Shown: positions 9,512 through 52,957, counted from the stretch's first letter. The stretch is DNA of 64,000 nucleotides from a virus (IMGVR_UViG_3300050190_000082:1-64000); one strand, 5' to 3'. Notes: generated from the sequence alone by a model not told the origin. Made by a program: numbers and translations.

Positions 9512-9552
9512 GCATTTAAAATCGGATTTTTAAAGGGTGAGAATTTCAAGCT

Positions 9553-9581
9553 CTGGAAGTGGCTTGTAGTAAGGGTTTCAG
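9553..9581. repeat. 29-bp 11-7-11 imperfect dyad, copy 1
   Basis: CTGGAAGTGGC-ttgtagt-AAGGGTTTCAG; related copies at 49614 and 52821. Confidence 0.6.
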
Positions 9582-9630
9582 AATCGCAAAATACCATATA
9601 ATGAGAAAATTTAATGAAAAGGAGTAGTTT

Positions 9631-10047
9631 ATGACTAAACAAGATTTATTTAATAAGATAAGACAACATGTAATCACTAACTATCAAAAAATTAATTCAT
9701 CTGATATGATTTTAGGAGAAGCATATTATAATCGAAGATGCCACCTAAATTCAGTACAAAAGGTTAAGGAGGGTTTTGCAACTAAAGTATTTCTATGCTT
9801 TGCAATTGATAGAGAAGATAATTCTCAATGTGTACATTTTATTAATCAAACTAATGATGGTAAATATGTTGATAATACTTGGGGTTGGCTATATGAGCAA
9901 AGTGATTATTATTTAATCAGAGAGATTGATAGTAGTGAATACAGTAAAATTTGGGATATACTTGAGAACGCTAAAAAGTCATTGTTTAACGCATATGCAA
10001 CATGTTTTGATAAATATATATTAAGGATTAAATATAATATTATTTGA
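9631..10047 (+). CDS. Hypothetical phage protein
   Basis: SD AAAGGAG; YNRRCHLNS..HFIN..DNTWGW motif; bounded by dyad sites. Confidence 0.65.
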   Translation: MTKQDLFNKIRQHVITNYQKINSSDMILGEAYYNRRCHLNSVQKVKEGFATKVFLCFAIDREDNSQCVHFINQTNDGKYVDNTWGWLYEQSDYYLIREIDSSEYSKIWDILENAKKSLFNAYATCFDKYILRIKYNII

Positions 10048-10083
10048 CAAATCAAATGAGGATTTGAATGGAAAGGAGAAAAT

Positions 10084-10347
10084 ATGGACAAATTTATTAA
10101 AATCTTAGATGTTACACTAAAACTGATAGGAACTACTTTAGGAATTGGACTATGTGCATTTGTAGGAGGGATGATATCTTTAATAGTATTTATGTTCTTT
10201 ACATTATTGTTCATGAATACCCAACCTACCTTAATTGTTATTCCTTTCCCTATTAAAATTTGTATTAGCATATTCTTTCTTATATTTTGGGTTGTTAGTT
10301 CCATTCAGTTTTTCATGGACAATAAAAGAAAGGGGGAAACAAGATGA
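10084..10347 (+). CDS. Small membrane protein
   Basis: Two hydrophobic segments; SD AAAGGAG. Confidence 0.6.
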   Translation: MDKFIKILDVTLKLIGTTLGIGLCAFVGGMISLIVFMFFTLLFMNTQPTLIVIPFPIKICISIFFLIFWVVSSIQFFMDNKRKGETR

Positions 10348-10583
10348 CCATATTTGTAAAGAGAGTAATTTATTGTAACGAATGTAGTTATGAAGTGCCT
10401 AACGATTACTACTTTGGAGCAAAAGATTGGATATTTACTAAAGATATAACAGAGGAAGGGTATCACTTTTGTAGTAATAAATGTTATGAATCTTTTATAG
10501 AAGATGAAAATAATGGTGAATTAATTTACATTAAGACATTAAATAGTAATGATGATGAATTTAGAAGAATAATGAATAAATAA
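10344..10583 (+). CDS. Small zinc-binding protein
   Basis: CNEC...HFCSNKC; ATGA overlap. Confidence 0.6.
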   Translation: MTIFVKRVIYCNECSYEVPNDYYFGAKDWIFTKDITEEGYHFCSNKCYESFIEDENNGELIYIKTLNSNDDEFRRIMNK

Positions 10584-10605
10584 CTGGAAATCCAAAATAA
10601 AATAT

Positions 10606-10851
10606 ATGATTTATTTAGAAAGGAGAAACAAATTGATTATATTACAAACTATTATGGGTTTTATTATTATTTATTTGATGTTTTGCCTTTATGCTTCAAT
10701 GTCTACTAAATTTAATATTGAAACTGCAAAAGGATTTGAGCATTTTTGTATAGTTGTTGGAGATTTTGTATTGGCAGGATTGAGTATTATCTTAGTTTTA
10801 TATCTCTCATACAAAATAGGAGAAATAATAGTATTCGTTTATAAACATTAA
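10606..10851 (+). CDS. Small membrane protein
   Basis: Two TM-like segments; true start probably the TTG after SD AAAGGAG. Confidence 0.55.
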   Translation: MIYLERRNKLIILQTIMGFIIIYLMFCLYASMSTKFNIETAKGFEHFCIVVGDFVLAGLSIILVLYLSYKIGEIIVFVYKH

Positions 10852-10878
10852 ATACTAAATAATGTTAGGAGGAATAAA

Positions 10879-11523
10879 ATGAAGAAACTTAAATTCATTA
10901 CTATTCTAATTGTGACTTTATTCATTGCAAATAAAGTTTACACAAATTCTCACAGTTCTCCCCAAATTACACCAACACAACAACAGAATTTAGAAAGTTA
11001 CAATAAAGAACAAAATAGAATCGCTGAATTAGCAAAGATGCAAGACCCAACAATCATAAGGACAGAATTAAAAAAGGTAGGAAAAGTAATCTCATTGCAG
11101 GGAAAATATAATTATTTTAGTAAAATCACTAATACAGATTCAATTTTTCATAAGTTTACATTAAGGGAAATAACATTAGATTTTCGGTATGAGTTTAATA
11201 TGGGCATGGATCTTCAATACATAAATATTACAAAAATAGACAATGGTGTTGTATACATAAATATCCCTAAGAGTCAAATTAAACTTCAAAGCGTTACAAT
11301 GTGCCCTGAGAGCCAGATTGTTACAGGGAATAAGATGTTTTTAGTATCACAATTTAGTCCTACAGATGTTCAAACTATCATTGAACAGAGTCAGAATAAT
11401 GTCATTGATAAAATTAGCAAAGATAATAAGTTAGTTGATACTGCTAAAGTTAATATGCAAGATGTAGTTGAAGGATTGGTGAAACGGTTGGGGTATAAAG
11501 AAGTTATCTTTAATCAAATTTAA
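10879..11523 (+). CDS. DUF4230-like membrane-anchored protein
   Basis: N-terminal anchor, GMDLQYI..VYINIPK pattern, C-terminal AK.N...LGYKEV. Confidence 0.6.
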   Translation: MKKLKFITILIVTLFIANKVYTNSHSSPQITPTQQQNLESYNKEQNRIAELAKMQDPTIIRTELKKVGKVISLQGKYNYFSKITNTDSIFHKFTLREITLDFRYEFNMGMDLQYINITKIDNGVVYINIPKSQIKLQSVTMCPESQIVTGNKMFLVSQFSPTDVQTIIEQSQNNVIDKISKDNKLVDTAKVNMQDVVEGLVKRLGYKEVIFNQI

Positions 11524-11698
11524 GGAGGGATAGGTAATTGGTGGCAATTGTTGAAAAGAGAGAAGAGATACAAGTTAAGGTATTGTTTGGCAGGGAAAAG
11601 TACATTTTGCTCAATCGTGAGGAACAATGGGAACTTGCCTTATCAGAAGGTTATACATTCAGTCCATTAAGAGGTAAATTTAGAAAGGCGGTAATAAT

Positions 11699-11890
11699 AT
11701 GATTGAAACAGGAGCTTATATTTATCAACAATACATAGATAAAATAGTTAAGAGATATGATGAGGATTTTATTGAAGGCGAAAAAGTGCAACAATACCTT
11801 GAAACTCTTGAAAGATGGGAAAATAAGGCTAAGAGATTGTCTTTAGTTAAAAAAGAGAAGTTAATATTTGCATTGGAAGAATTGAGTTAA
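11699..11890 (+). CDS. Hypothetical protein
   Basis: SD GAAAGGCGG. Confidence 0.55.
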   Translation: MIETGAYIYQQYIDKIVKRYDEDFIEGEKVQQYLETLERWENKAKRLSLVKKEKLIFALEELS

Positions 11891-11933
11891 CCAATTCAAA
11901 GAGTAATTTATTTGGAAGAAAGGGAATTATATT

Positions 11934-12152
11934 ATGATGTTTAGTACAAATACTCCATCACCGTTTACAGTTAAGGATTTAAAGAAACATTTAGAATATA
12001 TGGATGATAATATGATTATTCGCTTAGTTGGCACATTTGGAACAAATAAATTTTTAAGTCTTGTTGGTAGAGGGCATGATGAAGCGAGTTTCGCGTTTGA
12101 TGAAGAAGAATATTTTACAGGATGGGACTTTGAAAATAACTGTGAGAAATAG
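11934..12152 (+). CDS. Hypothetical protein
   Basis: Between dyad sites 11896 and 12160. Confidence 0.55.
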   Translation: MMFSTNTPSPFTVKDLKKHLEYMDDNMIIRLVGTFGTNKFLSLVGRGHDEASFAFDEEEYFTGWDFENNCEK

Positions 12153-12198
12153 AATCAAATCAAATACAAATTTAATAGGATAGAAAGGTGATATACAT

Positions 12199-12591
12199 AT
12201 GATTATCAATAAAAAAGTACAGTTAGTAACTGGTCAAGTGGAATATCAGACTATATGGGAACATGATTTTATGAGTGATGGAGAAACAGATTATGAGTAT
12301 AGAAAGTTTACTACAATTGGAGAATTACTAGAGTTAATAAGCGAGGAACAATTATGTGAGATTAAAAATGACTTAGACTGTGATCAAATAAGCGTTTCTG
12401 GAATTGTATTAAATGGCAGTGGCGATATGGCTAGATTTAGAGGAAGTATAGGAGAGAGAAAATTAGAAGGTTATATTACAGTTGATATTGACAACCAAGA
12501 CATAAATAAAAGGATTATTAATAATCTCGAAGCAATTAAAAAGATAGCTGAAAATACATTAAGTGAATATCCAATTGCTTATAGAGTTTAA
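12199..12591 (+). CDS. Hypothetical protein
   Basis: SD GAAAGGTG; between dyad sites. Confidence 0.6.
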   Translation: MIINKKVQLVTGQVEYQTIWEHDFMSDGETDYEYRKFTTIGELLELISEEQLCEIKNDLDCDQISVSGIVLNGSGDMARFRGSIGERKLEGYITVDIDNQDINKRIINNLEAIKKIAENTLSEYPIAYRV

Positions 12592-12848
12592 ATAATACCC
12601 AATAAATTCATTCTTTCAATCTAAGTGTAGAAAAGGAGAAATATATGATAGATGAAGAGTTTGTTATCACCCATTTAGAGAATAGAATTAAGGATCTAAT
12701 AAAACAGAAAAACATATTAATAGAAAACGAATTGCTTTCTACTAGAAATTATTGGTCAATTTCAGGAATTATTAGTGGTTTACAAGAGGCTTTAGATTTA
12801 CTAACCATATGAAAGACGAGTTTCAAAGGGAAAGGAAGGAAGAAAGAT

Positions 12849-13220
12849 ATGAGTTTAAATAATAAAAGTTGCAATATAAAAACAAAAGAATTAATCAATG
12901 GAGAAATTTTAGTATTAACTAATAGATATGGTGGGTCTGAATTTAGTATAGGTAGCCCTCATTTATTAATTAAAAAAGACAATAAATATGGAATAGGTGA
13001 AATATATTGTGGAAGCGAAGATAGTCCTCACCCATTAGAAACTAAATATAAGAGGGAATTTGAATGCAATTTATTGAGTAATTTTTATTGGTTTAATGAT
13101 CCTATACAATTTCTATGGTTAATGAAAATAGATCCTTATAAGTTGTCTAGTTTATTTGATTGGGATGAAGATTGTGATGTAGACGATTTTCAAGAAGAGG
13201 TTATTAAAAATTTTAAATAA
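12849..13220 (+). CDS. Hypothetical protein
   Basis: SD AAGGAAG. Confidence 0.6.
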   Translation: MSLNNKSCNIKTKELINGEILVLTNRYGGSEFSIGSPHLLIKKDNKYGIGEIYCGSEDSPHPLETKYKREFECNLLSNFYWFNDPIQFLWLMKIDPYKLSSLFDWDEDCDVDDFQEEVIKNFK

Positions 13221-13239
13221 ATAATAAAGGAGATTTTAA

Positions 13240-13833
13240 ATGAGTGTAGTAGTTGCGATTAAAGATAATGATAAAATATGGGTAGGGTGTGACAGTCAAG
13301 TTACTTCTGGAAATACAAAAGAAACATTAAAATTACAGAAGAAAATTTGGAGAGCTTCAGATGATGATCAATTAGTAATGGGAGTAGTTGGATATTTTAG
13401 AGATGCAAATATTTTGTCAACTACAGAAGGATTAATAGAAGAATTACCAAAGTTAAAAAATGAGGTTAACTTCAAATACATAGTTAGAAATGTAGTTCCT
13501 AAAATATTTTCTGAATTAGATGGTTTTGGAAGAATGAAATTATCTAATAATATCAAGTCTATCCAGTCCAATATAATACTTGCTTATAAAGATAACGCAT
13601 ATTGTATCGAAATGGATGGATGTGTAATGGAAATTGATGATATTTTAATTGATGGGTCTGGAGGTACATTAGGCTTAGGAGCCTGGAATGGGTTAAAGGA
13701 CAATAAAGAAATGAGTGTTAAGGATAAATTAGTTCAAGTGATTAAATCTGCTTGTGAGAGCAATTTATATGTCAATTACCCAATAATTATTATGAATACC
13801 AAAGATAAAGAAGTAGAAATAATCGAGAAGTAG
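13240..13833 (+). CDS. Ntn-hydrolase (HslV/proteasome-beta-like) peptidase
   Basis: M-SVVVAIKD..IWVGCDSQVT, K33-like KIW, and DGSGG motif. Confidence 0.65.
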   Translation: MSVVVAIKDNDKIWVGCDSQVTSGNTKETLKLQKKIWRASDDDQLVMGVVGYFRDANILSTTEGLIEELPKLKNEVNFKYIVRNVVPKIFSELDGFGRMKLSNNIKSIQSNIILAYKDNAYCIEMDGCVMEIDDILIDGSGGTLGLGAWNGLKDNKEMSVKDKLVQVIKSACESNLYVNYPIIIMNTKDKEVEIIEK

Positions 13834-13883
13834 TATAGTCACCAAATCAAAAATGCATTTCATATGGTAAAGGAGGAATAATT

Positions 13884-14051
13884 ATGATCACAGTTAGTTA
13901 TCTTGAATACTATAGTCAAGATGGTATAGAAAAATTCGTATTTTATACTTATAAAGAGTTCTTTCAATTTTGGAGTCACAATAGTAATCGAGGGAGCATT
14001 TCTTTGATTGGTCATACTGAGATGGAGATAAATAATCAATTCAAATTCTGA
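13884..14051 (+). CDS. Hypothetical protein (55 aa)
   Basis: SD AAGGAGG, ATG 13884; stop TGA lies in the spacer of dyad site 14041; not in track. Confidence 0.55.
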   Translation: MITVSYLEYYSQDGIEKFVFYTYKEFFQFWSHNSNRGSISLIGHTEMEINNQFKF

Positions 14052-14080
14052 TTTTAAGCTATTAAGGAAGGAGAATAATA

Positions 14081-14353
14081 ATGGCAATAGTAGAATATAA
14101 AAAAGATGTTCCATTGAAAGATAAGGTGAAAATAAAGCAAGGGGATTTTATCTATTGCAAAGCTAATGGAGGAGGATGTAGCTTTTGGGGTATATACGGA
14201 ATGGGATGTGGCGTAGTTTCTTTAGATGGAGCAGGAAGTAGTTATATTCCTAGTGGAGTTGATCTTTATTTAGGAGAGATTTATAATTATTGGCTAATAG
14301 AAAAGAGAATACCCTGTGACAAGGCTAGAATAACTATAGACGAGATAGAGTAG
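14081..14353 (+). CDS. Hypothetical protein
   Basis: SD AAGGAG. Confidence 0.6.
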   Translation: MAIVEYKKDVPLKDKVKIKQGDFIYCKANGGGCSFWGIYGMGCGVVSLDGAGSSYIPSGVDLYLGEIYNYWLIEKRIPCDKARITIDEIE

Positions 14354-14513
14354 AAAGGAAGGAGTAAATAAAATGGATCAATGTCCTAATTGCAAAGAAT
14401 ATTGGGTATCATGCCCCTGTTGCAAAGAAAGTTTTTGTCCAGATTGCGGAATGATTGAATCGGAAGCAGAAGAAAACGAGGAAAAGTAATTAACAAATAA
14501 TATATAATATAGT

Positions 14514-14542
14514 TTGACATGACTTCTTGTATATGGTAGAAT
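14514..14542 (+). promoter_or_regulatory. sigmaA promoter for ligase
   Basis: TTGACA-17bp-TAGAAT with TG; AATATATAATAT just upstream. Confidence 0.75.
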
Positions 14543-14589
14543 AAGATATAGCAAGAAGTCATATTTTATTAAGAAAGAAGGAGATACAT

Positions 14590-15873
14590 ATGGAAAAGGT
14601 ATTGGCAATCGTCCAACAAATTCAAAGCACTTCAGGGAGAAATGATAAGGAGTCAATTCTATCACAAAATAAGGACAATGAATTATTTAAAAGTGTAATG
14701 TATTTTATCTACAATCCATTTATCCTTACAGGTATTAGCAAAAAGAAGATTAGTAAGAAACTTAAACTTCCAACAGAACCTTCAACATTATCAATTATTG
14801 AGGTTATGGATTATCTTAAAACATATAATTCTGGTAGAGATGAAGATGTAACTTTAGTTCAACACTTTATTCATTCACAGCCTGAGGGATTAAGAGACTT
14901 TTATACTAAGATTGTTTCCAAGGATTTAAGTATAGGCTTAACAGAAGGGACATTAAATAAAGTATATGTCGACTTTATTCCTACATTCTCCGTTATGTTG
15001 GCTAAAAAATATGAAGATCATAAGAAGAAAATCAAAGGTGATTTTGTTATAACTGAGAAAATGGATGGGAATAGATGCGTAGTAATTAAGGATAATGGAG
15101 TTGTAAAATCTTTTACTAGGCAAGGAAAGCAGTATGAAGGACTTGAAGAAATTGAATCTGATATTGCAGATTTACTAGAGGACAATGTTGTTTTTGATGG
15201 AGAATTAATTGCGGATATGCAAGGTAGCACAATTGAAATCTATACAGAGACAACTAGTAAAGCAAGAAGTAAAGGTTCAAATAAAACAGGATTGATATAT
15301 CACATTTTTGATATGTTACCATTAGATGAATTTCAGGATGGAAAGTCTAAAACAAGTTGTGTTACACGTAAAAAATACTTATCTAGCGTGTTTGAGAATA
15401 ATAATTTGCCACATTGTAAAGAAGTTAAACCTCTATATATAGGAAGTAATTTATCAGAAGTAGAAAAGTGGATGAGTTGGGCTGGAGCTAATGAGCTAGA
15501 AGGAATCATGGTTAACTTAGATAAACCTTATATTTGCAAAAGAAGTGATTCAATTTTAAAAGTAAAAGTATTTAATGATGCTGATCTCAGGTGTTTAGAT
15601 GTTATTGAAGGGACTGGGAAAAATGTTGGGAAACTTGGTTCAATTACAATTCAATTCGAGCATGAAGGAAAAGCATATGAATGTAATTGTGGCTCAGGAT
15701 TCTCAGATGAGGAACGAGAAGCATACTGGAAGCAACCAGAATTGATAGTGGGTAAGATTGTGACAGTAGGTTATTTTGAAGTCTCTAAGAACGCTCAGGG
15801 AGATTATGGTTTACGTTTTCCAACTTGGAAGAGTATTATTAGACATGATAAAACTGAAATTAGTATGAATTAA
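14590..15873 (+). CDS. lig: ATP-dependent DNA ligase
   Basis: Motif I EKMDGNR, FDGEL, IFDML, EGIM, KVK, GSGF, LRFP. Confidence 0.95.
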   Translation: MEKVLAIVQQIQSTSGRNDKESILSQNKDNELFKSVMYFIYNPFILTGISKKKISKKLKLPTEPSTLSIIEVMDYLKTYNSGRDEDVTLVQHFIHSQPEGLRDFYTKIVSKDLSIGLTEGTLNKVYVDFIPTFSVMLAKKYEDHKKKIKGDFVITEKMDGNRCVVIKDNGVVKSFTRQGKQYEGLEEIESDIADLLEDNVVFDGELIADMQGSTIEIYTETTSKARSKGSNKTGLIYHIFDMLPLDEFQDGKSKTSCVTRKKYLSSVFENNNLPHCKEVKPLYIGSNLSEVEKWMSWAGANELEGIMVNLDKPYICKRSDSILKVKVFNDADLRCLDVIEGTGKNVGKLGSITIQFEHEGKAYECNCGSGFSDEEREAYWKQPELIVGKIVTVGYFEVSKNAQGDYGLRFPTWKSIIRHDKTEISMN

Positions 15874-15887
15874 GGAGGAGTAGATAT

Positions 15888-16721
15888 TTGAATTTAATTA
15901 TAGAAACAGTAGAGAAAAGCTGTACTAAATGCGGAGAAATGCATCCAGCAACAGAAGAATACTTTTACAAAAATAAAATAACCAACAAGAAAAATGGTGT
16001 GCATTATAGATTATCTTCATGGTGTAAGAAATGTAGTATTAAACTCACTCAGAAGAATTATGATTTAGAAAGACGCAAGGTATTAAACTATGGATATTAC
16101 CACAATAATGAAGAATATAGGCTGAGACAAATTGCATATGCACAAACACCAGAGTATAGAGAAGGGCAGTCTGAGTGGAGAAAGAAAAATCCTGATAAAT
16201 TAAGAGTATATGGGTTTAGACATAGAAACCATGATATTACTAATAAAGAGTGGCAATCATGTTTAGATGTGTTTGGAAACAAATGTGCTTACTGCGGATT
16301 ATTAGCAGAAAATCATGTCACGAAAAGAAATGGGAAGAACATAATCATGAAACTTCACAGAGATCACGTAGATGATGAAGGATACAATGACTTGAGAAAT
16401 GCCATTCCTGCTTGTCAAAGTTGTAATACCAGTAAGCACGATGCTAGTTTAGATAATTGGTATAAGACTAGAGACTTTTATACTGAGGACAGATATAATT
16501 TTATTATATGGTGGACAACTGAAGGGTTTAAGTATTACATAGAAGATAAACCTCTATACAGAATAATAAGGGAAAGAAATAAAGAGGATACAAAATATCA
16601 TTATAATTTATGGAGTGTTGATGAAATGAGAAATACATTAAATATAATTTCAACTAAAGTTTCCAAGAAAGAGTTGATGGAAGATATTGAAGAATATTTA
16701 AAAACTATAATCGTCAAATAA
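15888..16721 (+). CDS. HNH endonuclease
   Basis: CAYCG...DHV...N..PACQSCNTSK; paralog of 30201..30968. Confidence 0.85.
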   Translation: MNLIIETVEKSCTKCGEMHPATEEYFYKNKITNKKNGVHYRLSSWCKKCSIKLTQKNYDLERRKVLNYGYYHNNEEYRLRQIAYAQTPEYREGQSEWRKKNPDKLRVYGFRHRNHDITNKEWQSCLDVFGNKCAYCGLLAENHVTKRNGKNIIMKLHRDHVDDEGYNDLRNAIPACQSCNTSKHDASLDNWYKTRDFYTEDRYNFIIWWTTEGFKYYIEDKPLYRIIRERNKEDTKYHYNLWSVDEMRNTLNIISTKVSKKELMEDIEEYLKTIIVK

Positions 16722-16757
16722 ACTTATGGTTTTATTCTATTACACGAAAGGAGATAT

Positions 16758-17144
16758 ATGGAGAATATAATATGTCATTTATGTGCTGGAAGTCCAGAAA
16801 TAGAATTATACAAAATTAACTTATCAGAAGATGAAAAGAATTATTTAAACAAGACATACTCTCCTATTAAAGTAGATATTTGTATAGGTTTAGAAATAGA
16901 GTCTTTAATAAAAAATGGCATTAGAACATATGGTTGTTGCTGTGGACATGGAAAATATAAACCAGAATGTTTGGTAGATATTAGTTGTAAGGATAAATTA
17001 AATAATATGGATTACGAATTACATGAATTCAGTGAAGGACATAGTAAAAAAGGAGTTATGGAAATATATTTAAAAACTAATGTACAATGTGAATTAAGAA
17101 AAGTATTAAAGAATAAAGTTTTTAGATATTTAGAAAGGGTTTAA
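16758..17144 (+). CDS. Hypothetical protein (VDxCI...GIxTxxCCCGH family)
   Basis: VDICIGLEIESLIKNGIRTYGCCCGHG motif; bounded by dyad sites. Confidence 0.6.
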   Translation: MENIICHLCAGSPEIELYKINLSEDEKNYLNKTYSPIKVDICIGLEIESLIKNGIRTYGCCCGHGKYKPECLVDISCKDKLNNMDYELHEFSEGHSKKGVMEIYLKTNVQCELRKVLKNKVFRYLERV

Positions 17145-17176
17145 AAAGAACATTTGAAGGGATAGGAGGTAAGTAA

Positions 17177-17521: not shown

Positions 17522-17584
17522 TAATGAAAGAATTTTGATTAAATCCAAGTAAATGATATATTTTAATCTATAGAAAGGAGATTT

Positions 17585-20556: not shown

Positions 20557-20805
20557 ATGTTGAAATATGTAGGAGAGTTTACTGCTGAAGTAGAGAATTG
20601 TGGTCAATTGCCTTTTAATGAAACTAATACTGAATTAGATGATATTTTTACGGTAGTCAATATTCTCACTGATTTAACGTACAGGAGAATAGAAGAGGCT
20701 ATTATTGAACTGGAGAAAAGCGAAAAGCCAAACTTAGGATATATTGAGTTGTATAAAAATATGAGAACTTATAAACGTATTTTAGATGGGTTTGAGGGCA
20801 TTTAA
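20557..20805 (+). CDS. Hypothetical protein
   Basis: Between dyad sites 20521 and 20804; SD AAAGGAG. Confidence 0.6.
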   Translation: MLKYVGEFTAEVENCGQLPFNETNTELDDIFTVVNILTDLTYRRIEEAIIELEKSEKPNLGYIELYKNMRTYKRILDGFEGI

Positions 20806-21026
20806 AAAAGAGAATTTTATTGTAATATAATAAGAAAGAAGGAAAATAATAATGGTTAAGAAGTGGTTCCCAGTTGTTTTATATATAATTGTTGCGTCTA
20901 TTATTGATTCATATATCCCTGTCAATTGTCATTACACATTTGGATTTATGGCTGGTATTTTTGTTATACCTGTTACAATTACAAAATAAAGGAGGAGTTT
21001 TATTCTGATACAAAGGGAGTTGAAGT

Positions 21027-21215: not shown

Positions 21216-21590
21216 TTAGGAAAAATCAAATACTTTGTAAATTATGTTCAAAGATATTTTTTAAATCAAATAAAGTTAAAGATGTTAATAATAGAGAATA
21301 TGAAATTTGCCCTTATTGTGGGTCTAAATGGATTTCATATCTTACGTTTCCTAATTAGCATCAAACATAATTTTCAAGGGAATAGAAAGAAGGAGTACGA
21401 TTATGGAGAATACATGGGATAATTTTCTACAGGAAATGAGAGAATGCGATATGGTTGAAGATGTAGATGATCCTAATGATAATTTATACGAACTTGAAGA
21501 AGTTCTGGAAAAGATTGAGTCATTGACCAGAAAGGCTCAAAAGCTTACTAAAAAAATACGGATTAAAAATAGAAAAAACTAAAATAAACC

Positions 21591-25514: not shown

Positions 25515-25531
25515 CTAATATATAATTTATG

Positions 25532-25560
25532 TTGACTTTGTATCTTATCCGTTATATAAT
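25532..25560 (+). promoter_or_regulatory. sigmaA promoter heading array 2
   Basis: TTGACT-17bp-TATAAT; TAATATATAATTT upstream; first dyad site about 20 bp downstream. Confidence 0.75.
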
Positions 25561-25608
25561 GTTATTATACATAAGAGACATTAAAAGATTGCTTTTAAAG
25601 GACTGGAG

Positions 25609-25965: not shown

Positions 25966-26616
25966 TTGAAAATGTTCTACGATGAAGACGATAGAGAACC
26001 ATATTACAACCCAGAAGATTTTCTAGAGGAATATGAAGTAAATCTAAGAGATATTATCACCAAAGCAGTTAATGATAAAATTAAAAATACAATTGAAAAA
26101 CTACAATTAGCAGAAGATGAAAATAAGAGACTTGGTAAAGAGGTTGGAGAATTAAAACGTAATGTTTACAACACTGAAAGATTACATAAAGAACAACTGG
26201 ATAAAGCATTAAAAGAGAAAGAGTTAGAAGTCCAGAGGAATTTAAGTTGTGGTTTTACTCCTCATGATAAAGCTTGGTATATAGAATCAAAAGCAAAACA
26301 GACAAAATGCGAACAATGTAATGGAAATTATAATGTAGAAGTTGAAGTATTAGGTAAAAAGACAAAGGTAAGTTGCCCACATTGTTCTTATGGTAATCTA
26401 ACAACTTATACATATTCTGTAAAACAAGATACCGTATCTTCCATTTATTATAATTATCATAGAGAAGACAGAAATAAAAACTATGGAATTGTTCTAAACG
26501 TAGATAAGATATATTTGGATAGATATGATGGTTCTAAAGACCTAAAGAATTTATATAAGACTTTAGAAGAAGCTCAGACAGAATGTGATATTAAGAATAC
26601 AAAGGTAGTAGAATAA
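25966..26616 (+). CDS. Hypothetical coiled-coil/zinc-finger protein
   Basis: CEQCNG...CPHC.YG. Confidence 0.65.
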   Translation: MKMFYDEDDREPYYNPEDFLEEYEVNLRDIITKAVNDKIKNTIEKLQLAEDENKRLGKEVGELKRNVYNTERLHKEQLDKALKEKELEVQRNLSCGFTPHDKAWYIESKAKQTKCEQCNGNYNVEVEVLGKKTKVSCPHCSYGNLTTYTYSVKQDTVSSIYYNYHREDRNKNYGIVLNVDKIYLDRYDGSKDLKNLYKTLEEAQTECDIKNTKVVE

Positions 26617-26646
26617 AAAATTGGTTTCAATTGCTTTGAAAGGAGA

Positions 26647-29862: not shown

Positions 29863-29890
29863 ATTACAAGTTATTCATAAAATCTACCTT

Positions 29891-29960
29891 CCAAATGCTC
29901 CCGAATACTCCTATATGCTCCGTTTTCCTAGCTCATAAAACCGTTCAAATGATTATTTTA
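29891..29960 (+). repeat. Three phased 10-bp direct repeats plus dyad site, copy 1
   Basis: ccaaatgctc-ccgaatactc-ctatatgctc, then 24 bp, then site 29945; homologous to 31909-31978. Confidence 0.65.
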
Positions 29961-31889: not shown

Positions 31890-31908
31890 AATCAGATAAA
31901 ATAACCTC

Positions 31909-31978
31909 TCTCATACTTCCATATGCTCGTTAATGCTTCCATTTACTAACACATAAACCAATTAAAAGTCCATTTTTA
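31909..31978 (+). repeat. Three phased 10-bp direct repeats plus dyad site, copy 2
   Basis: tctcatactt-ccatatgctc-gttaatgctt, then 24 bp, then site 31963. Confidence 0.65.
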
Positions 31979-32184: not shown

Positions 32185-32373
32185 ATGAATGCTAAAGACT
32201 TAAAAATTGGTGACATTATAGATGCTTATATAGAAGACGAAAAGACACAGAGAGTTATGATAATTGAAGTTGGGGAAGAATTAGTCTATGGGATTAGTAG
32301 TGATAATGAGGAATTTGCTATTGAGCCACGAAGTGAAGTTGAGAGAGTTATAGTTAATATTAATGATCTTTAA
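32185..32373 (+). CDS. Hypothetical protein
   Basis: SD AAAGGAG. Confidence 0.55.
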   Translation: MNAKDLKIGDIIDAYIEDEKTQRVMIIEVGEELVYGISSDNEEFAIEPRSEVERVIVNINDL

Positions 32374-32400
32374 CTAATGTTTGGATGATATATAATATAT

Positions 32401-32429
32401 TTGACTTATGTATAAACAAGTAGTATAAT
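32401..32429 (+). promoter_or_regulatory. sigmaA promoter of the replication operon
   Basis: TTGACT-17bp-TATAAT; GATATATAATAT immediately upstream. Confidence 0.8.
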
Positions 32430-45626: not shown

Positions 45627-45631
45627 TATAT

Positions 45632-45907: not shown

Positions 45908-46150
45908 ATGATAAGGAGCGTGGAGAATAAGTTGGCCGACCTGTCCATGTGTAAGAATATCAATAATAACTGTCCTAAAGCAAATTCTTGTCATAGATTC
46001 TTAGCAGAGAAAAGTGAAGAACAGATATTTATGAAATTCCATAATATATGCAAGGAATCAAACAATTACAAGTGGTATTGGGAAGAGAAACAAGAGATAA
46101 CTGTAAAAGTAGAAGAACCAATTATTAAGGAAGAAAGTGATACTAATTAA
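45908..46150 (+). CDS. Small Cys-rich hypothetical protein
   Basis: DLSMC...CP...CHRF motif; true start probably the TTG after AAGGAG. Confidence 0.55.
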   Translation: MIRSVENKLADLSMCKNINNNCPKANSCHRFLAEKSEEQIFMKFHNICKESNNYKWYWEEKQEITVKVEEPIIKEESDTN

Positions 46151-46325
46151 GATTATGGTTGAGTGTATCCATGAATGTGAAGGGTATATTTTAGGAGAAA
46201 AATATAAAATGATCAGTTGTTCAGGACAATATATTGAGGTTGAAAATTCTACAGGTTTTAGAGAGATTATGTCAGATAAATATTTTAGTGGTGCAGGTAA
46301 AAGATTGAGTAAAAATAATAAATAA
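46137..46325 (+). CDS. Hypothetical protein
   Basis: ORF within the operon. Confidence 0.5.
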   Translation: MILIKIMVECIHECEGYILGEKYKMISCSGQYIEVENSTGFREIMSDKYFSGAGKRLSKNNK

Positions 46326-46347
46326 TATAAAAGAATGGAGATAATAC

Positions 46348-48570
46348 ATGAATAATGTTACAAAAAGAGATGGCAGAATTATCACATTTAATAAGGATAA
46401 GATCACTAACGCAATTAAATTAGCAATGGTTAGGACAGAAAAGGGTATTGATGAAGCATTAGCTGTTGAAATATCAGAAAAAGTAAATAAAATGGACAAA
46501 AAAGAGATGAATGTTGAAGAAATTCAAGATTTAGTAGAACTTAAACTAATGGCAAGCTCAAGGAAAGATGTAGCAAAGGAGTTTATTACATATAGAAATA
46601 AAAGAAGTGAAGTAAGACAAAAAAATACAGAGTTAAATAAGAAGATTGAGAAAATTTTACTCTGTAATAATATTCAAAACTCTAATGCAAATGTTGATGA
46701 ATATTCTTTTGGTGGAAGAAAGTTTGAAAGTGCAGGATTATTACATAAAGATTTTGCAATGAATAATTTACTTAGAAGTGATGTTGCTGAAGCGTTTAAG
46801 GAAAATAGGATTTACATCCATGACTTTGATTCTTATGATATTGGAATGCATAATTGTTTATATATTGATATGGGTAAACTATTAAATGATGGATTTACAA
46901 CTAGAAATGGTGATGTAAGAGGAGCAAATTCAATCGGTAGTGCCATGCAATTAGTAGCAGTTATTTTTCAATGTCAATCGCAGATCCAGTTCGGGGGTGT
47001 AGGTAGTATTCACTTAGATATTGACCTAGCTCCTTTTGTAGCTAAATCTTTTAAAAAATTATTCTGCAAAGGATTGTTTTACTTCGATAGTATTAAAGAC
47101 CCAAAGGAATATATTGTTGCTAGTGAATTAGAAGTTAAATTAGATAATGTAAAATATTTGCAATATAAGTTTCCTAAAGCAACAAATTATGCTTTATTAG
47201 AATTAGATAAAGATGGGTTACAATCTGCTCAAGCAATGTTTCATAATCTAAACACTCTAGAATCTCGTCCAGGTTCACAATTACCTTTTACATCAGTTAA
47301 CTATGGTAGGGATATTACAACAGAAGGAAGGATGGTTTCTGAGTGGCTGTTGAAGGCTAGTATTGATGGTATTGGTAAATATCACACCACAAGTATTTTC
47401 CCTATCAGTATTTTTCAATATAAGAAAGGGACTAATGATGTTGTAGGGACTCCTAATTATGATATAAAAAGATTAGCAATTAAATCAATGTGTAAGAGGA
47501 TTTATCCTAACTGGGTTAATGGTGATTTCAGTAGCAATATTGAAGATGAAAATGATCCAAATACCTTCATGAGTACAATGGGTTGCCGAACTTCCATAGG
47601 GGATGATGTTCATGGATTAGGGTTTTCTAAACTTGGAAGAGGAAATATTTCACCTGTCACAATTGATTTGCCAAAGTTAGGGATTAAACATGGTATTTGT
47701 TTAGGTAATGAATTAGATTTAAAAGGATTCTGGGAAGAATTAGATGAAGTATTAAAACTTACTGTGCAAGCACTAGTCGATAGGTTTTATCATATCTGTA
47801 ATCAATCGGTTAAGTCTGCACCATTCATGTACAAAAATGGAACAGTCGCAGATTCAGAAAGTGCTTTGAAAAATGGTGTATATGAGTCAATGAAACATGG
47901 GACTAATGCAATAGGATATATCGGAGTTGCAGAAATGTGTCAAGCAATGTTTGGAAAGAATCATGCCGAATCTGAAGAAGTAAAGGAATTTGCATTAGAA
48001 GTAATTGTACATATGTGGGAACACGCAAAACAGGCTAATATTGATCACAATTTAAACTTTAGCCTTTATGCAACCCCAGCAGAAAACCTTTGTAAAACAA
48101 TGATGGTAGGACTTAAAGAGGAATTTGGTGTCATTCCTAATGTCACAGAAAAGGATTATCTTACAAATTCTCATCATGTTCCAGTATGGCAGGAAATTTC
48201 AATCTTTGATAAGTTAAAAGTAGAAGCTCCATTCTGTAAATATCCTACTGGTGGTTGCATTACATATGTTGAGTTAGATAGTTCAATTATTCATAATGAA
48301 GAAGCAGTAGAAAAGATTATTGACTATGCAATGGCATTAGATATTCCTTATATGGCATTTAACTTTCCAATTGATTCTTGCTTAGATTGTGGATACCAAA
48401 GTGAATTTAATAATGCTTGCCCTATTTGTATGAGTGAGAATATCCAACAACTACGAAGGGTTACAGGATATCTAAGCACAGACTTTAGAAACTTTAATGA
48501 AGGGAAGAAGCAAGAAATAAATGATAGGGTAAAGCATTCATTGTTTACAGACTTTACAAAAGGTGAATAA
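46348..48570 (+). CDS. nrdD: Anaerobic (class III) ribonucleotide reductase
   Basis: ATP cone VTKRDG, HNC, MGCR, TPAE, TNS.H, CxxC..CPxC, RRVTGY. Confidence 0.97.
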   Translation: MNNVTKRDGRIITFNKDKITNAIKLAMVRTEKGIDEALAVEISEKVNKMDKKEMNVEEIQDLVELKLMASSRKDVAKEFITYRNKRSEVRQKNTELNKKIEKILLCNNIQNSNANVDEYSFGGRKFESAGLLHKDFAMNNLLRSDVAEAFKENRIYIHDFDSYDIGMHNCLYIDMGKLLNDGFTTRNGDVRGANSIGSAMQLVAVIFQCQSQIQFGGVGSIHLDIDLAPFVAKSFKKLFCKGLFYFDSIKDPKEYIVASELEVKLDNVKYLQYKFPKATNYALLELDKDGLQSAQAMFHNLNTLESRPGSQLPFTSVNYGRDITTEGRMVSEWLLKASIDGIGKYHTTSIFPISIFQYKKGTNDVVGTPNYDIKRLAIKSMCKRIYPNWVNGDFSSNIEDENDPNTFMSTMGCRTSIGDDVHGLGFSKLGRGNISPVTIDLPKLGIKHGICLGNELDLKGFWEELDEVLKLTVQALVDRFYHICNQSVKSAPFMYKNGTVADSESALKNGVYESMKHGTNAIGYIGVAEMCQAMFGKNHAESEEVKEFALEVIVHMWEHAKQANIDHNLNFSLYATPAENLCKTMMVGLKEEFGVIPNVTEKDYLTNSHHVPVWQEISIFDKLKVEAPFCKYPTGGCITYVELDSSIIHNEEAVEKIIDYAMALDIPYMAFNFPIDSCLDCGYQSEFNNACPICMSENIQQLRRVTGYLSTDFRNFNEGKKQEINDRVKHSLFTDFTKGE

Positions 48571-49077
48571 ATGCATATAAGTGGACTTGTAAATGAAAGT
48601 TTAGTGGATGGAATAGGGATTAGGACAACCATTTTCATTAGTGGTTGTCGCCACTTCTGTAAAGGATGTCAGAATCCAGAGACACATAATTTTAAGAGAG
48701 GAGTTGAATTTGACGAAGAATTACAATGGAAAGTAATAGACGATATAAGGAATAATCCTCTTATCCAAGGTATTACATTATCGGGTGGAGACCCTATGTT
48801 CTCTGCAAAAGAATTAGTAGAGTTTGTTGAATTTGCTAAAAGTGAACTTAATAATATAAACATATGGTGCTACACTGGATTCACATATGAAATGATTAGA
48901 AGTGGCAATGACGTAGATATGATTGATTTACTTAAACTATGTAATGTTTTGGTTGATGGAAAATTTATATTAGAACAAAAAGATATTACATTATCATTTA
49001 GAGGTAGTGGGAATCAAAGAATTATTGATGTTAAAGAAAGTTTAAAGCAAGGTATTGTTATTAAGTTAATGGATTAA
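48571..49077 (+). CDS. nrdG: Anaerobic RNR activating enzyme (radical SAM)
   Basis: DG.GIR, CRHFCKGC, SGGDP, FRGS.NQRIID. Confidence 0.95.
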   Translation: MHISGLVNESLVDGIGIRTTIFISGCRHFCKGCQNPETHNFKRGVEFDEELQWKVIDDIRNNPLIQGITLSGGDPMFSAKELVEFVEFAKSELNNINIWCYTGFTYEMIRSGNDVDMIDLLKLCNVLVDGKFILEQKDITLSFRGSGNQRIIDVKESLKQGIVIKLMD

Positions 49078-49101
49078 ATATAATAAAAGGAGTTTAGATA
49101 A

Positions 49102-49530
49102 ATGAACATTAAAATTAAATACTTCAGTAATGAAATCGAGAAAGTATCAAAAATTACTAATGGTGATTGGATTGATTTACGTTCTGCAATCAATCGTGTT
49201 ATTCCAAAAGGAGAATTTGCTTTAATTCCTCTAGGTGTTGGTATGATACTTCCTGAAGGATATGAGGCTCATATTGTTCCACGCTCAAGTACATATAAAA
49301 ACTTTGGAGTTATTCAAACTAATCATATGGGAGTAGTAGATGAATCATACAAAGGAGACCGAGATCAGTGGTTTTTCCCTGCATTTGCACTAAGAGATAC
49401 TGTAATTAAACTAAATGATAGGATTTGTCAGTTTAGGATTGAAAAGAAAATGCCAGAAGTAGAGTTTGAAGAAGTAGAATCTCTTGAAGATGTAAATCGT
49501 GGTGGATTTGGGAGTACAGGGGAAAATTAA
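49102..49530 (+). CDS. dut: Trimeric dUTPase
   Basis: [30 protein letters not shown]. Confidence 0.95.
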
Positions 49531-49613
49531 GATCAATATTCCTTTAAAAGTAATATTTTAATGGAAAAGAAATTAGGGCTTTATAATTTAAGTATAAAAT
49601 CAGATATAAAGCC

Positions 49614-49642
49614 CTACAACCGTTGGTGCATAAGGGTTTCAG
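49614..49642. repeat. 29-bp 11-7-11 imperfect dyad, copy 2
   Basis: CTACAACCGTT-ggtgcat-AAGGGTTTCAG. Confidence 0.6.
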
Positions 49643-49971
49643 AGGTTGATTATTAAAATATCCTAAAACACTAGCAAAATGGCTATTTTAAGGTAAATAC
49701 CCATAATAGATTAAAACTTATCTTTTATTCTATAGTAAATCCAACAACAGGAAGGAGGTGACAGAAAAGAAAGGAGAAGAACATAATGGACATATTAATT
49801 AAGTGGTTAACAAAACAAATAAACATTCCTAAAAATTTACATAATGAAAACACCTATATGTGGAGTAAAGGATATAGAAAAGCTTGCTCAGATATTTTAG
49901 AGTTTATAAATAAAATTGAAAATAAGTAAGTTCAAATTTTAAAAGAAATTTTAAAGGCAATTAAGAAAGGA

Positions 49972-50205
49972 ATGATAAAAATGAAATTACTCTGTGTTAA
50001 TACAGTAATTATGTCGGTAAGTGGAGAACAGTCATTTACCAAAGGGAAAGAATATAAAAGTTATAAATCTACTCGTAAGGTTGATTATGATATTGAAAAA
50101 GTTATCTGTGCAAAGAATGATCATGGAGAAAGTCATATTATTAAAAATGAACAAAATTCTAGTTTAGATGATTTCTATTATCATAATTTTAAGGAGATAA
50201 AGTAA
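49972..50205 (+). CDS. Hypothetical protein
   Basis: C...V.M...FTKGKEY...ND.G..H.I motif. Confidence 0.6.
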   Translation: MIKMKLLCVNTVIMSVSGEQSFTKGKEYKSYKSTRKVDYDIEKVICAKNDHGESHIIKNEQNSSLDDFYYHNFKEIK

Positions 50206-50490
50206 TAATCTTGGAAATAGAAAGGATGTATTAATATAGAAGATAGACTGGTTACGTTCACAGAGGCTCTATTCGCAAAGAAACTTGGGTTTAAAATTTA
50301 CGGTGTCACTGATAAGGGAACGCCAACAAATTGGAATCCAGAAACTCAAAATATGGTTTCTTGGTACGCAGTAGAAAAAGGCAAATGGTATATCAAAGGT
50401 GGTGAATAATAAAAAAGTATTAGGTAAGTATAAATCTAGCTTAGAATAAATAACCATTCAAACCGAAATTTTATTTGGGGGAAGGAGGAC

Positions 50491-50533
50491 GGACAGAAAA
50501 GACCGTGGTGTTCAAATACGGTCTTTTCTGTCC
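50491..50533. terminator. Perfect 16-bp inverted repeat (terminator or structured RNA)
   Basis: GGACAGAAAAGACCGT-11 nt-ACGGTCTTTTCTGTCC. Confidence 0.65.
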
Positions 50534-50652
50534 AAAACAGGATAATCTATTTCAGATGTCTTACTTGATAGCGATATTAGTATATCCTATTTAGAACTTT
50601 ATATACAAAGGTAAACAGAACATTTATAAAAAAATATAAGGGAGGAGTAAAA

Positions 50653-50847
50653 ATGATAATAAATAAAATGTTTACAGAGGAACAATATCAAACCTATGCA
50701 AATTTTTTAAATAAAATGGGGCAGGAGAGTCTCCTAGATTATTCTACATATGATGAATCTGAAAACTGGCTAAAAGAAAGTAATATTACTATTGCTATTC
50801 AAAATGCAATGGATGAAAGATTTTCAGTAGAGAATATAGAGCAATAA
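50653..50847 (+). CDS. Hypothetical protein
   Basis: SD GGAGGAG. Confidence 0.55.
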   Translation: MIINKMFTEEQYQTYANFLNKMGQESLLDYSTYDESENWLKESNITIAIQNAMDERFSVENIEQ

Positions 50848-50929
50848 TTCCCTAATATTTGAAAAGAAATGCTAAATTATGTGCCTGAATAAAAAACACA
50901 TTTTATCGTATAGAAAGGAGTAGATAAAA

Positions 50930-51028
50930 ATTACTTTATTTGACACTTTTTGTTTTTGGTTAATTTTGTCTTCTATATATGGGTTACTACTTGCCGTTGG
51001 TATTAAAATGAAAAAGAGAAGTATATGA
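50930..51028 (+). CDS. Small membrane peptide with probable ATT start (32 aa)
   Basis: SD AGAAAGGAG at 50912-50920, in-frame TAG at 50921, ATT at 50930; ITLFDTFCFWLILSSIYGLLLAVGIKMKKRSI*; ATGA overlap with the next gene. Confidence 0.5.
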   Translation: MTLFDTFCFWLILSSIYGLLLAVGIKMKKRSI

Positions 51029-51342
51029 TAAATAATTATAAAGTAATTACCCTATGTGGGAGTACAAAGTTTAAAGATGAATTCCTAAAAGCACAAAAAG
51101 AATTAACTCTTCAAGGAAATATTGTTATCTCAGTAGGATTATTTGGTCATGCTGATGGAGATTATAAAACAGTTCTTACAGAAGAAATAAAAGTAATGTT
51201 AGATGATATGCACAAAAGAAAAATAGATATGGCAGATGAGATTTATGTAATTAATAAGAATGGATATGTAGGCAGTAATGCAAAAAGTGAAATAGAATAT
51301 GCAGAACATACAGGTAAAGTGATTAAATACTTGGAGGAGTAA
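51025..51342 (+). CDS. Rossmann-like phage protein (nucleoside deoxyribosyltransferase-like fold suspected)
   Basis: VITLCGSTKF..LT..GNIV..H.RKID.AD.IYVIN..GY.G....EI.YA. Confidence 0.6.
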   Translation: MINNYKVITLCGSTKFKDEFLKAQKELTLQGNIVISVGLFGHADGDYKTVLTEEIKVMLDDMHKRKIDMADEIYVINKNGYVGSNAKSEIEYAEHTGKVIKYLEE

Positions 51343-51548
51343 ATAAATGATTATTATCAGTGGAACAAAAGAAGAATTATTAAAATTTACAGGTGAATTT
51401 ATTCCATCTGAATGTCCTAGAGATACAAAAACCATGAGTAAAGAAAAATGTTATATTTATCAAAATTGTGAAGAATGTGCATTAGATAACGAGAAAAGAT
51501 TCATTTATAAAATTATAGAGTAGGAGGAAATATATTGGATTTATCACA

Positions 51549-51749
51549 GTGGTTAGTAGTTATTTATTTTGTTCCTTTATTATATCAATAATATATTTTA
51601 CAATGCTTAAAGTTGAAGATTTGTTTAAAGTTGAGAAATCATACTCCAAAGATAAACATTCATATTTAAAATGTATTGGTCTTTCCTTTATCCCCATCTT
51701 AAATATAGCAATCGCTTTGAAACTTAGTTGGAAACAAATTGTAGGTTAA
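51549..51749 (+). CDS. Small membrane protein
   Basis: Hydrophobic segments with FIPILN. Confidence 0.5.
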   Translation: MVSSYLFCSFIISIIYFTMLKVEDLFKVEKSYSKDKHSYLKCIGLSFIPILNIAIALKLSWKQIVG

Positions 51750-51773
51750 ATTTTAAATTGAGGAGATTAAAAT

Positions 51774-52118
51774 ATGAAAATTTATATTGATCACAATAAG
51801 AAAATTGACCATTCACCCTGCTATGATTGTGAAACGGGAGGAGGTAGCATAAGTAGTGGAAGAGATGAAAAAGGGGAATATACTGAAACAACTACTTGTC
51901 ATGATGATTGCATAAAACTTAAATCATATTATATGAATATCAAAGAAGATTCAAGTATATATTGTAATACCTTACATATCCCTAAACGATATAAAATTGA
52001 TTTTGATAAGGTTACTAATTTAGAAGATATCTTACTAATATTAAAATCACTAAATATTACAATATCTGAGGAGTCAATCATAGGAATTGAACACTTAGTT
52101 AAAGAAATTACATATTGA
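51774..52118 (+). CDS. Hypothetical protein
   Basis: SD GAGGAG. Confidence 0.55.
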   Translation: MKIYIDHNKKIDHSPCYDCETGGGSISSGRDEKGEYTETTTCHDDCIKLKSYYMNIKEDSSIYCNTLHIPKRYKIDFDKVTNLEDILLILKSLNITISEESIIGIEHLVKEITY

Positions 52119-52306
52119 AAGGAGTAAAAAATGAGCTGGTTGAAGAAATTATTCTGTCGTCATGATTTTATTTGGGACGGGAAACATGTACATTTTATTC
52201 TTGAAGGAACAAAAACATATTACGTATGTACCAAATGTGGAAAAGAAAAGCAAGTTTGGTTAGGTAAAACTGGCAAAAAGTAAATAAAATATTAGGAGGA
52301 ATACAT

Positions 52307-52795
52307 ATGAATATAGAATTTTTAACAGGTAAAATGCTAGGTAAAGAAATTAAGATAGAAACATTTGATAAGGATGGTAATCTTGGCATACTTATTGATA
52401 ATTTAAAGGTTGATTCTGTAGAAATCATTAAAACAATGTGGGCAGGGTACAATATAAAAGTCAATGAAAATATCAACCTCTATTTTGATTCGTTAGAACC
52501 ATGTGATTATAATGACTTGGAATATAATAAGCACTGTCTTTGCCTATTTAGGGATGATGTTGAATTAGTAAACGTCTATTTACCAGAAGGAGACAGTTGG
52601 AATGAGATGAATCCTACTATTCAAGAGATGGCAGACGAAATTAATACTAAAATAATAGATACTAAAATTAACTTATGCAATTTTTGCATCTTCTGTCCAG
52701 CAGAATGTTTAGCAAAAGAAGAAGATGTTAAATATGGTGATGGTTATGGACTAGATAATATTTATAAATGTAAGACGTATGTCGAGGCTTGGTAA
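52307..52795 (+). CDS. Hypothetical protein
   Basis: SD AGGAGG; C-terminal Cys cluster. Confidence 0.6.
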   Translation: MNIEFLTGKMLGKEIKIETFDKDGNLGILIDNLKVDSVEIIKTMWAGYNIKVNENINLYFDSLEPCDYNDLEYNKHCLCLFRDDVELVNVYLPEGDSWNEMNPTIQEMADEINTKIIDTKINLCNFCIFCPAECLAKEEDVKYGDGYGLDNIYKCKTYVEAW

Positions 52796-52820
52796 TAGAA
52801 ATTAATGAAAATTTATGATT

Positions 52821-52849
52821 CTACAAGTCGCTGATAGCAAGGGTTTGAG
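52821..52849. repeat. 29-bp 11-7-11 imperfect dyad, copy 3
   Basis: CTACAAGTCGC-tgatagc-AAGGGTTTGAG. Confidence 0.55.
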
Positions 52850-52957
52850 AACTGTATAGGCACATATTCATAGTAAGGTTGAGTTTAAATATGATGAGGG
52901 TAGAATTATGTCAGATGATATTTTAAAAGGCTTAGAGCAAGCATTTAGGAGGATAAA

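Follow-up and report, generated by a model that had tools for sequence, protein, structure and literature searches.

A dyad with a strict six-base spacer at accessory-gene junctions of a large phage genome and of Bacillus phage SPbeta: a putative protein-docking site that may also join gene modules

This article concerns a short dyad, TNAAA-N6-TTTNA, that recurs at junctions between small early genes in the window, by which we mean the whole analysed stretch IMGVR_UViG_3300050190_000082:1-64000, which makes up the first 64 kb of an IMG/VR virus record of 153,759 bp (30% G+C, completeness about 92%). All positions are counted from the first letter of the full record, which is called G000 below. 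Several described systems invite comparison. In Xer-dif and Cre-lox inverted arms of 11-13 bp flank a spacer of 6-8 bp; any spacer sequence will serve provided that both partners have the same one, and there is no cross-reaction between lox variants that differ in the spacer. The attC sites of integrons are imperfect palindromes of 55-140 nucleotides (nt) that fold on one strand and have one fixed crossover, with intI lying beside attI. The stoperators of mycobacteriophage L5 are asymmetric 13-mers with a known repressor, and the conserved boundary sequences of lambdoid phages, which are not one spaced dyad, have been proposed as joints for modular exchange. The junction site is like the L5 stoperators and the lambdoid boundary sequences in that many dispersed short sites lie in operon gaps; like dif and lox in having mirror-symmetric arms around a strict 6-bp spacer, and this in both groups of phages compared here, the clostridial family and the SPbeta group; and like integron arrays in that co-oriented, mostly promoterless small genes stand between recurrent sites downstream of a promoter. 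Whereas dif and lox occur as one or two sites per replicon and have a proven enzyme, there are 20-70 junction sites per genome, with spacers of their own and a candidate of the HxxK type. Neither attC-type folding nor a fixed crossover nor an adjacent intI was seen in the arrays of this phage.

Two further systems come from phages. In T4-type phages the PeSL cassettes likewise consist of short conserved intergenic motifs that flank small non-essential open reading frames (ORFs) in hyperplastic early regions (PMC2839356, PMC4122927), and at PeSL as at the junction site, close relatives differ by insertions, deletions and replacements whose ends coincide with the motif. A PeSL combines a sigma-70 promoter with a terminator stem-loop, the function of which has been shown, and its homologies of about 50 nt recombine and yield mini-circles (PMC2839356, PMC4122927); the junction site, in contrast, is a dyad of 16-28 bp with a free spacer, no -35/-10 pair and no stable hairpin. 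In the SPbeta group itself the repeated intergenic element SPBRE is bound by a protein of tyrosine-recombinase fold without catalysis, the master repressor MrpR (YopR) (PMC10516654); a homologue of this protein is encoded in the window. SPBRE differs from the junction site in sequence, being 15 bp long, and is placed at some ten promoters (PMC10516654); the junction site lies outside the published ChAP-seq peaks.

The initial annotation had written the site as T(A/C)AAA-N6-TTT(T/C)A and had taken the arrays that it punctuates for integron-like gene cassettes. In this form there are 26 matches on both strands of the window, where 7.2 ± 3.1 are expected, and none of 100 dinucleotide shuffles reached this number (maximum 17). 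On the plus strand of the window 17 matches have the spacer N6, and any other spacer from N0 to N12 gives 0-5; in the whole 153.8-kb genome the counts are 24 at N6 and 2-10 at other spacers, which bears out the predicted peak at six. An unseeded count of inverted 4-mer dyads at the window junctions put TAAA-N8-TTTA on top (16 versus 2.4 in shuffled sequence, maximum 7) together with AAAA-N6-TTTT (10 versus 2.5), alongside promoter-type TATA dyads. The 5-bp core of the arms has stood up; the restriction of one arm letter to A or C has not, since letters 2 and 15 are free, show no covariation with each other, and the C variants are unpaired across the arms. The wider pattern TNAAA-N6-TTTNA is found 30 times outside coding sequence, as against 5-10 times with spacers other than N7, and the N7 count of 25 is inflated by overlap with N6 sites. 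That the junction palindrome with its strict 6-base spacer is real is confirmed by these counts.

The sites lie in gaps of about 25-120 nt at 9.5-32 kb and 49.5-51 kb. Seen junction by junction, they are at or just past a stop codon and 8-38 nt ahead of the next start, and shortly before the Shine-Dalgarno sequence (SD), as had been stated, and all of them are in transcribed junctions in the same orientation as the genes. No site was found at the tight junctions in the window or at the junctions of the 32.6-49.5 kb replication operon, and the claimed confinement to accessory junctions in the small-gene arrays is thereby upheld. Among the 41 window junctions of 25-90 nt, 25 hold a site with at most one mismatch, and control spacers give 5-10. 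There are 20 exact junction sites, including one at 14041 that overlaps a stop codon, and about 9 convincing sites with one mismatch; when longer junctions are included the total comes to about 30-35, close to the number of about 35 given in the initial annotation. Array 2 begins, as reported there, with a site behind a TTGACT-17-TATAAT promoter. The sites are the following (listed without strand).

9517-9532, exact site, followed by a structured-leader-like repeat
10052-10067, exact site (TNAAA-N6-TTTNA)
12160-12175, exact site
12810-12825, exact site, left arm is the stop codon TGA, shared with relative L023 through the site
13847-13862, exact site, identical spacer in relatives L022 and L023
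14041-14056, exact site, stop codon within the spacer
17142-17157, exact site, left arm is a stop codon
20042-20057, exact site, left arm is a stop codon
20370-20385, exact site
21361-21376, exact site
25582-25597, exact site, 20 nt past the -10 box of the sigma-A-type promoter heading array 2
26614-26629, exact site, left arm is a stop codon
27608-27623, exact site, left arm is a stop codon
28507-28522, exact site, 5' of a DNA methylase gene
29945-29960, exact site, preceded by a conserved element of about 70 nt
31963-31978, exact site with arms extended to 9 bp, preceded by a second element of about 70 nt
49545-49560, exact site, directly past the replication/nrd operon
49712-49727, exact site
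50458-50473, exact site
50890-50905, exact site, followed by an SD without a called ORF
10598-10613, one-mismatch site
12603-12618, one-mismatch site
16719-16734, one-mismatch site, left arm is a stop codon
17550-17565, one-mismatch site
20804-20819, one-mismatch site
20987-21002, one-mismatch site, left arm is a stop codon
25918-25933, one-mismatch site, left arm is a stop codon
30966-30981, one-mismatch site, left arm is a stop codon

Some sites have additional sequence in common on one side. A conserved, leader-like sequence of the type TTTCAA..CTCTG.AAGTGGCTTGTAG stands directly 3' of dyad sites in three places (window 9533-9600, G000 about 88.8 kb and 82.6 kb (minus strand)). Homologous elements of about 60-70 nt (ATGCT.CC..TT.C.TA.. 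type) abut three dyad sites on the 5' side (29880-29944, 31900-31962 and G000 about 71165-71208), the first of which is kept in relative L023 with 85% identity. At 50890-50925 the dyad is followed by a perfect SD but by no ORF with a standard start, and this may be an empty or decayed cassette slot.

To describe the form of the site, 52 different exact copies, taken from this phage and its relatives, were compared. The consensus of the flanks is mirror-image to six positions on each side (-6/+21), which extends the dyad to 11-6-11; with the symmetry reaching about 11 bp in each arm, the site exceeds the 5-6-5 first described. The geometry likened at the outset to a tyrosine-recombinase core, two inverted arms around a 6-bp spacer, is thus retained with longer arms than were then assumed. 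Complementarity between the two flanks of a site does not exceed that between flanks drawn from different sites; in these 52 copies the spacer shows no symmetry of its own, and spacers differ from site to site within one genome. A 24-nt RNA around the site folds with a mean of -1.4 kcal/mol, in agreement with the earlier remark that the arms are not terminators. Symmetric flanks, lack of covariation and negligible folding together suggest that a symmetric dimer recognizes the half-sites on duplex DNA. A hairpin or terminator was rejected because there is no covariation at the variable arm letters and the folding energy is negligible, and a promoter because the sites contain no -10/-35 pair, the nearness of the SD leaves no room for an intervening start site, and sigma-70 region-2 genes were not found.

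The same element is present in Bacillus phage SPbeta, where strict TAAAA-N6-TTTTA has 34 copies versus 0-3 at spacers 2-11. Most copies are at junctions of the yop-yot early genes and have TCTAGA-like outer arms mirrored on both sides. For at least nine SPbeta genes (yoqG, yoqS, yoqY, yorT, mtbP, yorZ, yosC, yosF and yosR) the gene's own TAA stop supplies the first three letters of the site that follows it, in the left arm. In the 86-127 kb region of SPbeta the TCTAGA outer arm also supplies a TAG in a second frame. The distance from site to SD is 1 to 34 nt in SPbeta and 8-15 nt in the clostridial family. A limited survey of the SPbeta literature found no mention of the junction site.

For the clostridial family we used 20 non-redundant related loci recovered from viral metagenomes via their SNF2 helicase and ligase. 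Their 25-90 nt junctions (n = 316) contain 53 exact sites at N6 and 1-10 at other spacers, the overlapping N7 aside. Counted over whole records at N6/N4/N9, the core is enriched in Perkons (71/19/14), Geobacillus E3 (71/37/46) and Tsamsa (51/20/17), weakly in LIBA6276 (66/53/37) and not in a Staphylococcus SPbeta-like phage (36/37/24). The order of the small-gene families is heavily shuffled among the relatives, many families being found on either side of the helicase depending on the genome, and the expectation of the initial annotation that homologous ORFs change order is borne out. Adjacency is conserved at 57% of the tight junctions, 15% of the site-less junctions of similar, middle length and 6% of the site-bearing ones.

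How the sites relate to recent rearrangements can be seen best in SPbeta, Goe11, Goe13, SPbetaL8 and phi3T, which were compared over the 83-100 kb region. In this group 49 of 169 distinct ends of homologous blocks are at exact sites, although the windows around these make up about 2.8% of the DNA, and the control spacers N4 and N9 account for 1 and 3 block ends, respectively. Block starts fall at -6 to -1 in 27 of 28 cases and at +12 in the remaining one; block ends fall mostly at +14 to +22, with 5 of 21 at +5 or +9. The overlap between adjacent blocks is therefore a complete site with its spacer. One site copy is found joined to differing upstream and to differing downstream genes, and a 3,213-bp stretch identical in SPbeta and phi3T has a site at both ends. 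The same is true of a 5.1-kb block, 99.7% identical, in the relatives L014 and L015. In the clostridial family 20 of 310 block ends are at exact sites (1.2% of the DNA), and 8 of 40 when blocks of at least 92% identity are taken. Boundaries are enriched at sites about 10-fold in the SPbeta group; for the clostridial family the figure is 5- to 17-fold. The clustering of gain and loss boundaries that had been foreseen is thus observed in both.

Where exactly the boundaries lie differs from what had been foreseen. They are not within the N6 spacer but at the outer edges of the whole shared site, or at stops and SDs: among divergent clostridial relatives most boundaries are at the stop of the shared upstream gene or the SD of the shared downstream gene, and a survey of gene-family breakpoints in these relatives found no concentration in the site, the signal coming from the ends of BLAST blocks of recent events and from the SPbeta group. 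Nor did free capture and shuffling of cassettes hold up, since each site copy stays in position with its own spacer as its neighbourhood changes. Upstream of homologous genes that have come into new contexts the site copies differ, and units that have moved, such as families 4-5, are not bounded by sites. In homologous DNA of the SPbeta group a site is in the interval of 24 of 81 divergence switches, with a rough expectation of 14. Because most homologous exchanges are away from the sites and many boundaries are at stops and SDs, the sites appear to be joints between non-homologous modules rather than the dominant crossover points.

We therefore propose, with a probability of about 0.5, that the site is a protein-docking dyad at loose accessory-gene junctions that doubles as a module-joining linker. 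The element would comprise 26-28 bp, with 11-bp arms, the inner core TNAAA/TTTNA and a free 6-bp spacer, on which a predicted symmetric protein dimer would dock in double-stranded DNA. In SPbeta-like phages, selection would retain it where small early accessory genes meet at loose junctions. As each copy is a short stretch common to otherwise unrelated neighbourhoods, it could at the same time serve to join non-homologous gene modules, probably by short-homology recombination within one site copy, carried out by a phage annealing protein or the host machinery and involving no dedicated cassette integrase. As to the role of binding, our guess would be punctuation or blocking of early-operon transcription, or DNA architecture. 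Putative binders are two candidates conserved both here and in SPbeta, a YomM-type protein and an HU/TF1-like protein. Several points weigh against this proposal. At the level of the binder it offers candidates, and their binding is presumed; the whole site is retained and cassettes are swapped exactly between sites, which is neater than expected of microhomology; a highly conserved protein of recombinase fold with catalytic-type residues is present in all these phages; and the Staphylococcus SPbeta-like phage has a YomM homologue and an unenriched core, so that conservation is not universal.

The genes for these candidates, and two further genes that matter for the alternatives, are as follows.

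4412-5773, plus strand, gene for a 453-amino-acid protein, directly 5' of the MrpR-like gene, YopQ-equivalent by position only, without a family match
5797-6837, plus strand, MrpR/YopR-like gene of the tyrosine-recombinase-fold master-repressor family
G000 114855-115838, minus strand, YomM-type protein of tyrosine-recombinase fold, 52% identical to SPbeta YomM (E 8e-109), in the late structural operon
G000 141280-141549, HU/TF1-type gene, SPbeta counterpart yonN

The YomM-type gene is about 50-105 kb from the arrays and belongs to a family of at least 354 members. The family is present in the SPbeta group, E3, Perkons and staphylococcal SPbeta-like phages and, more distantly, in Tsamsa-like phages; its co-occurrence with enrichment of the motif is not clean, the Staphylococcus phage having the protein alone and LIBA6276 being weak in the motif. 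Invariant in 22 aligned members are R191/R192, K222, H293, K296, H320 and Y330, that is, the catalytic set except that the second Arg is replaced by Lys (HxxK instead of HxxR), and the Pfam scores are below cut-off. The structure model (pLDDT 81) contains both domains of the fold in full, with matches to XerA, Tn1549 Int, Cre and XerH over their full length. For the tyrosine recombinase that the initial annotation had suggested to look for elsewhere in the genome, this conserved protein of tyrosine-recombinase fold, in the HxxK variant, is the only enzyme candidate. In the window PF00589 gave no match above cut-off, the weak matches being the MrpR-like gene and the MazF-like gene. No serine recombinase was found, and G000 has no homologue of the YopP-type integrase. 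A binder of the ParB/KorB/Noc type was considered and dropped, there being no ParB_N (PF02195) match in G000 or SPbeta.

The conserved YomM-type protein raises the question whether the sites could be lox- or dif-like 11-6-11 substrates of this recombinase, with private spacers, serving programmed module exchange or circularisation. The geometry is the same as that of dif, blocks overlap by the whole site with its spacer, the same copy is joined to different neighbours, and spacers vary between the sites of one genome as such a reading expects; the 52% identity to SPbeta YomM, the invariant catalytic-type residues and the structural matches to XerA, Cre, Tn1549 Int and XerH fit as well. We nevertheless regard this as unlikely, for the second catalytic arginine is an invariant lysine in a protein that scores below the Pfam cut-off, its gene is in the late structural operon distant from the arrays, most exchange points in homologous DNA are away from the sites, many boundaries are at stops or SDs, and the Staphylococcus SPbeta-like phage carries the protein without enrichment of the core. 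Overlap by one identical site is also the pattern that homologous recombination would give. With private spacers, only copies with the same spacer would recombine, allelic ones in another genome or those in a terminal redundancy. More doubtful still is that many mutually incompatible lox-like sites would permit only allelic exchange between co-resident SPbeta-like genomes, or circularisation of permuted headful genomes via a site in the terminal redundancy. The proposal of the initial annotation went further, in that a recombinase, crossing over in N6 and tolerating non-identical spacers like Tn916, would take up promoterless cassettes, cut them out and rearrange their order. The widely differing order of small genes among relatives, the low conservation of adjacency at site-bearing junctions and the clustering of boundaries at sites speak for it. 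It fails its defining tests: boundaries are at the edges of the site and not in N6, hybrid spacers are rare, each site retains spacer and position, moved units are not site-bounded, homologous genes are found with different site copies, and there is no integrase adjoining the arrays, no serine recombinase, no YopP homologue and no attC-type folded structure. An integron-like system is very improbable.

Two explanations make the sites control elements. They might be operators or "stoperators" of the MrpR-like repressor and keep the early arrays silent while the phage is a prophage or plasmid, since a gene of the MrpR family is present, a dyad with a 6-bp spacer fits a recombinase-type fold, and MrpR, which has such a fold, binds a repeated SPbeta element (PMC10516654). 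The ten ChAP-seq peaks of MrpR are, however, all at SPBRE, at promoters (PMC10516654), and the element that we derived from the ten corresponding SPbeta upstream regions, an AT-rich 15-mer, does not resemble the junction site; moreover, a separate promoter-linked repeat in the window suits the role of SPBRE better. With the sequence differing and the published peaks all at SPBRE, the junction site was rejected as the MrpR operator, and the stoperator reading is improbable. The sites might also act in the polycistronic early mRNA, as processing signals or as enhancer or repressor sites of translation 5' of each SD. All of them are indeed in transcribed junctions and co-oriented, and in the clostridial family the SD follows after 8-15 nt. 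In SPbeta this distance is not kept, while the left arm is often the stop codon; no Rfam family matches; and the arms neither covary nor fold appreciably. As reverse-complement symmetry is meaningless on a single strand unless it is paired, the lack of covariation argues against an RNA signal, which we hold to be quite improbable.

The promoter-linked repeat is AT-rich and of the ATATAATATA type; at strong sigma-A-type promoters it either covers the -35 box or lies immediately 5' of it (7898-7939, 8844-8885, 14500-14560, 25520-25570, 32363-32429 and 56736-56777). The ATATAATATA-type repeat, rather than the junction dyad, is the likelier counterpart of SPBRE for the MrpR-like repressor.

Judged by gene content and order, G000 is the genome of a clostridial phage organised like SPbeta. 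Its genes are on the plus strand up to about 70 kb and on the minus strand beyond. The window encodes a DnaE-type polymerase, a RecD-like helicase, NrdD, a DnaB-like helicase, the SNF2 helicase, DNA ligase and a methylase. The closest named phages by DnaE are the Clostridioides phages LIBA6276 and LIBA2945 (57%), and a nucleotide search of the arrays against a phage collection gave no near match. The layout parallels that of SPbeta: the MrpR/YopR-like gene follows the 453-amino-acid gene in the position of YopQ, small early ORFs form long arrays, the replication operon includes a gene for PolIII-alpha, and there are nrd, methylase and 3D-domain genes. The control locus is headed by a 266-amino-acid ORF (498-1298, plus strand) with a PemK/MazF toxin domain (E 3e-21), which is of note as the arbitrium control of SPbeta type acts via the host MazEF. 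Two paralogues at 2493-4271 and 56823-58670 (plus strand; 592 and 615 amino acids) have DUF4379 treble-clef zinc fingers and internal repeats, and are about 72% identical in nucleotide sequence across several stretches at an offset of 54,354 nt. In the window no tRNA and no known RNA family was found, no Rfam family reaching its threshold.

SPbeta has long been a model phage. Anti-defence genes are among those in its early small-gene arrays, and annotation places Gad1 and Gad2 in the early small-gene regions of SPbetaL phages. From Bacillus to clostridial phages one strictly spaced dyad punctuates these early arrays and marks swaps of modules. Were the lox-like reading true, a programmed module-exchange system distinct from integrons would exist across large Firmicute phages. 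The identity of the binder would reveal either how dozens of accessory genes are controlled or insulated, or a recombination system that speeds the turnover of counter-defence genes.

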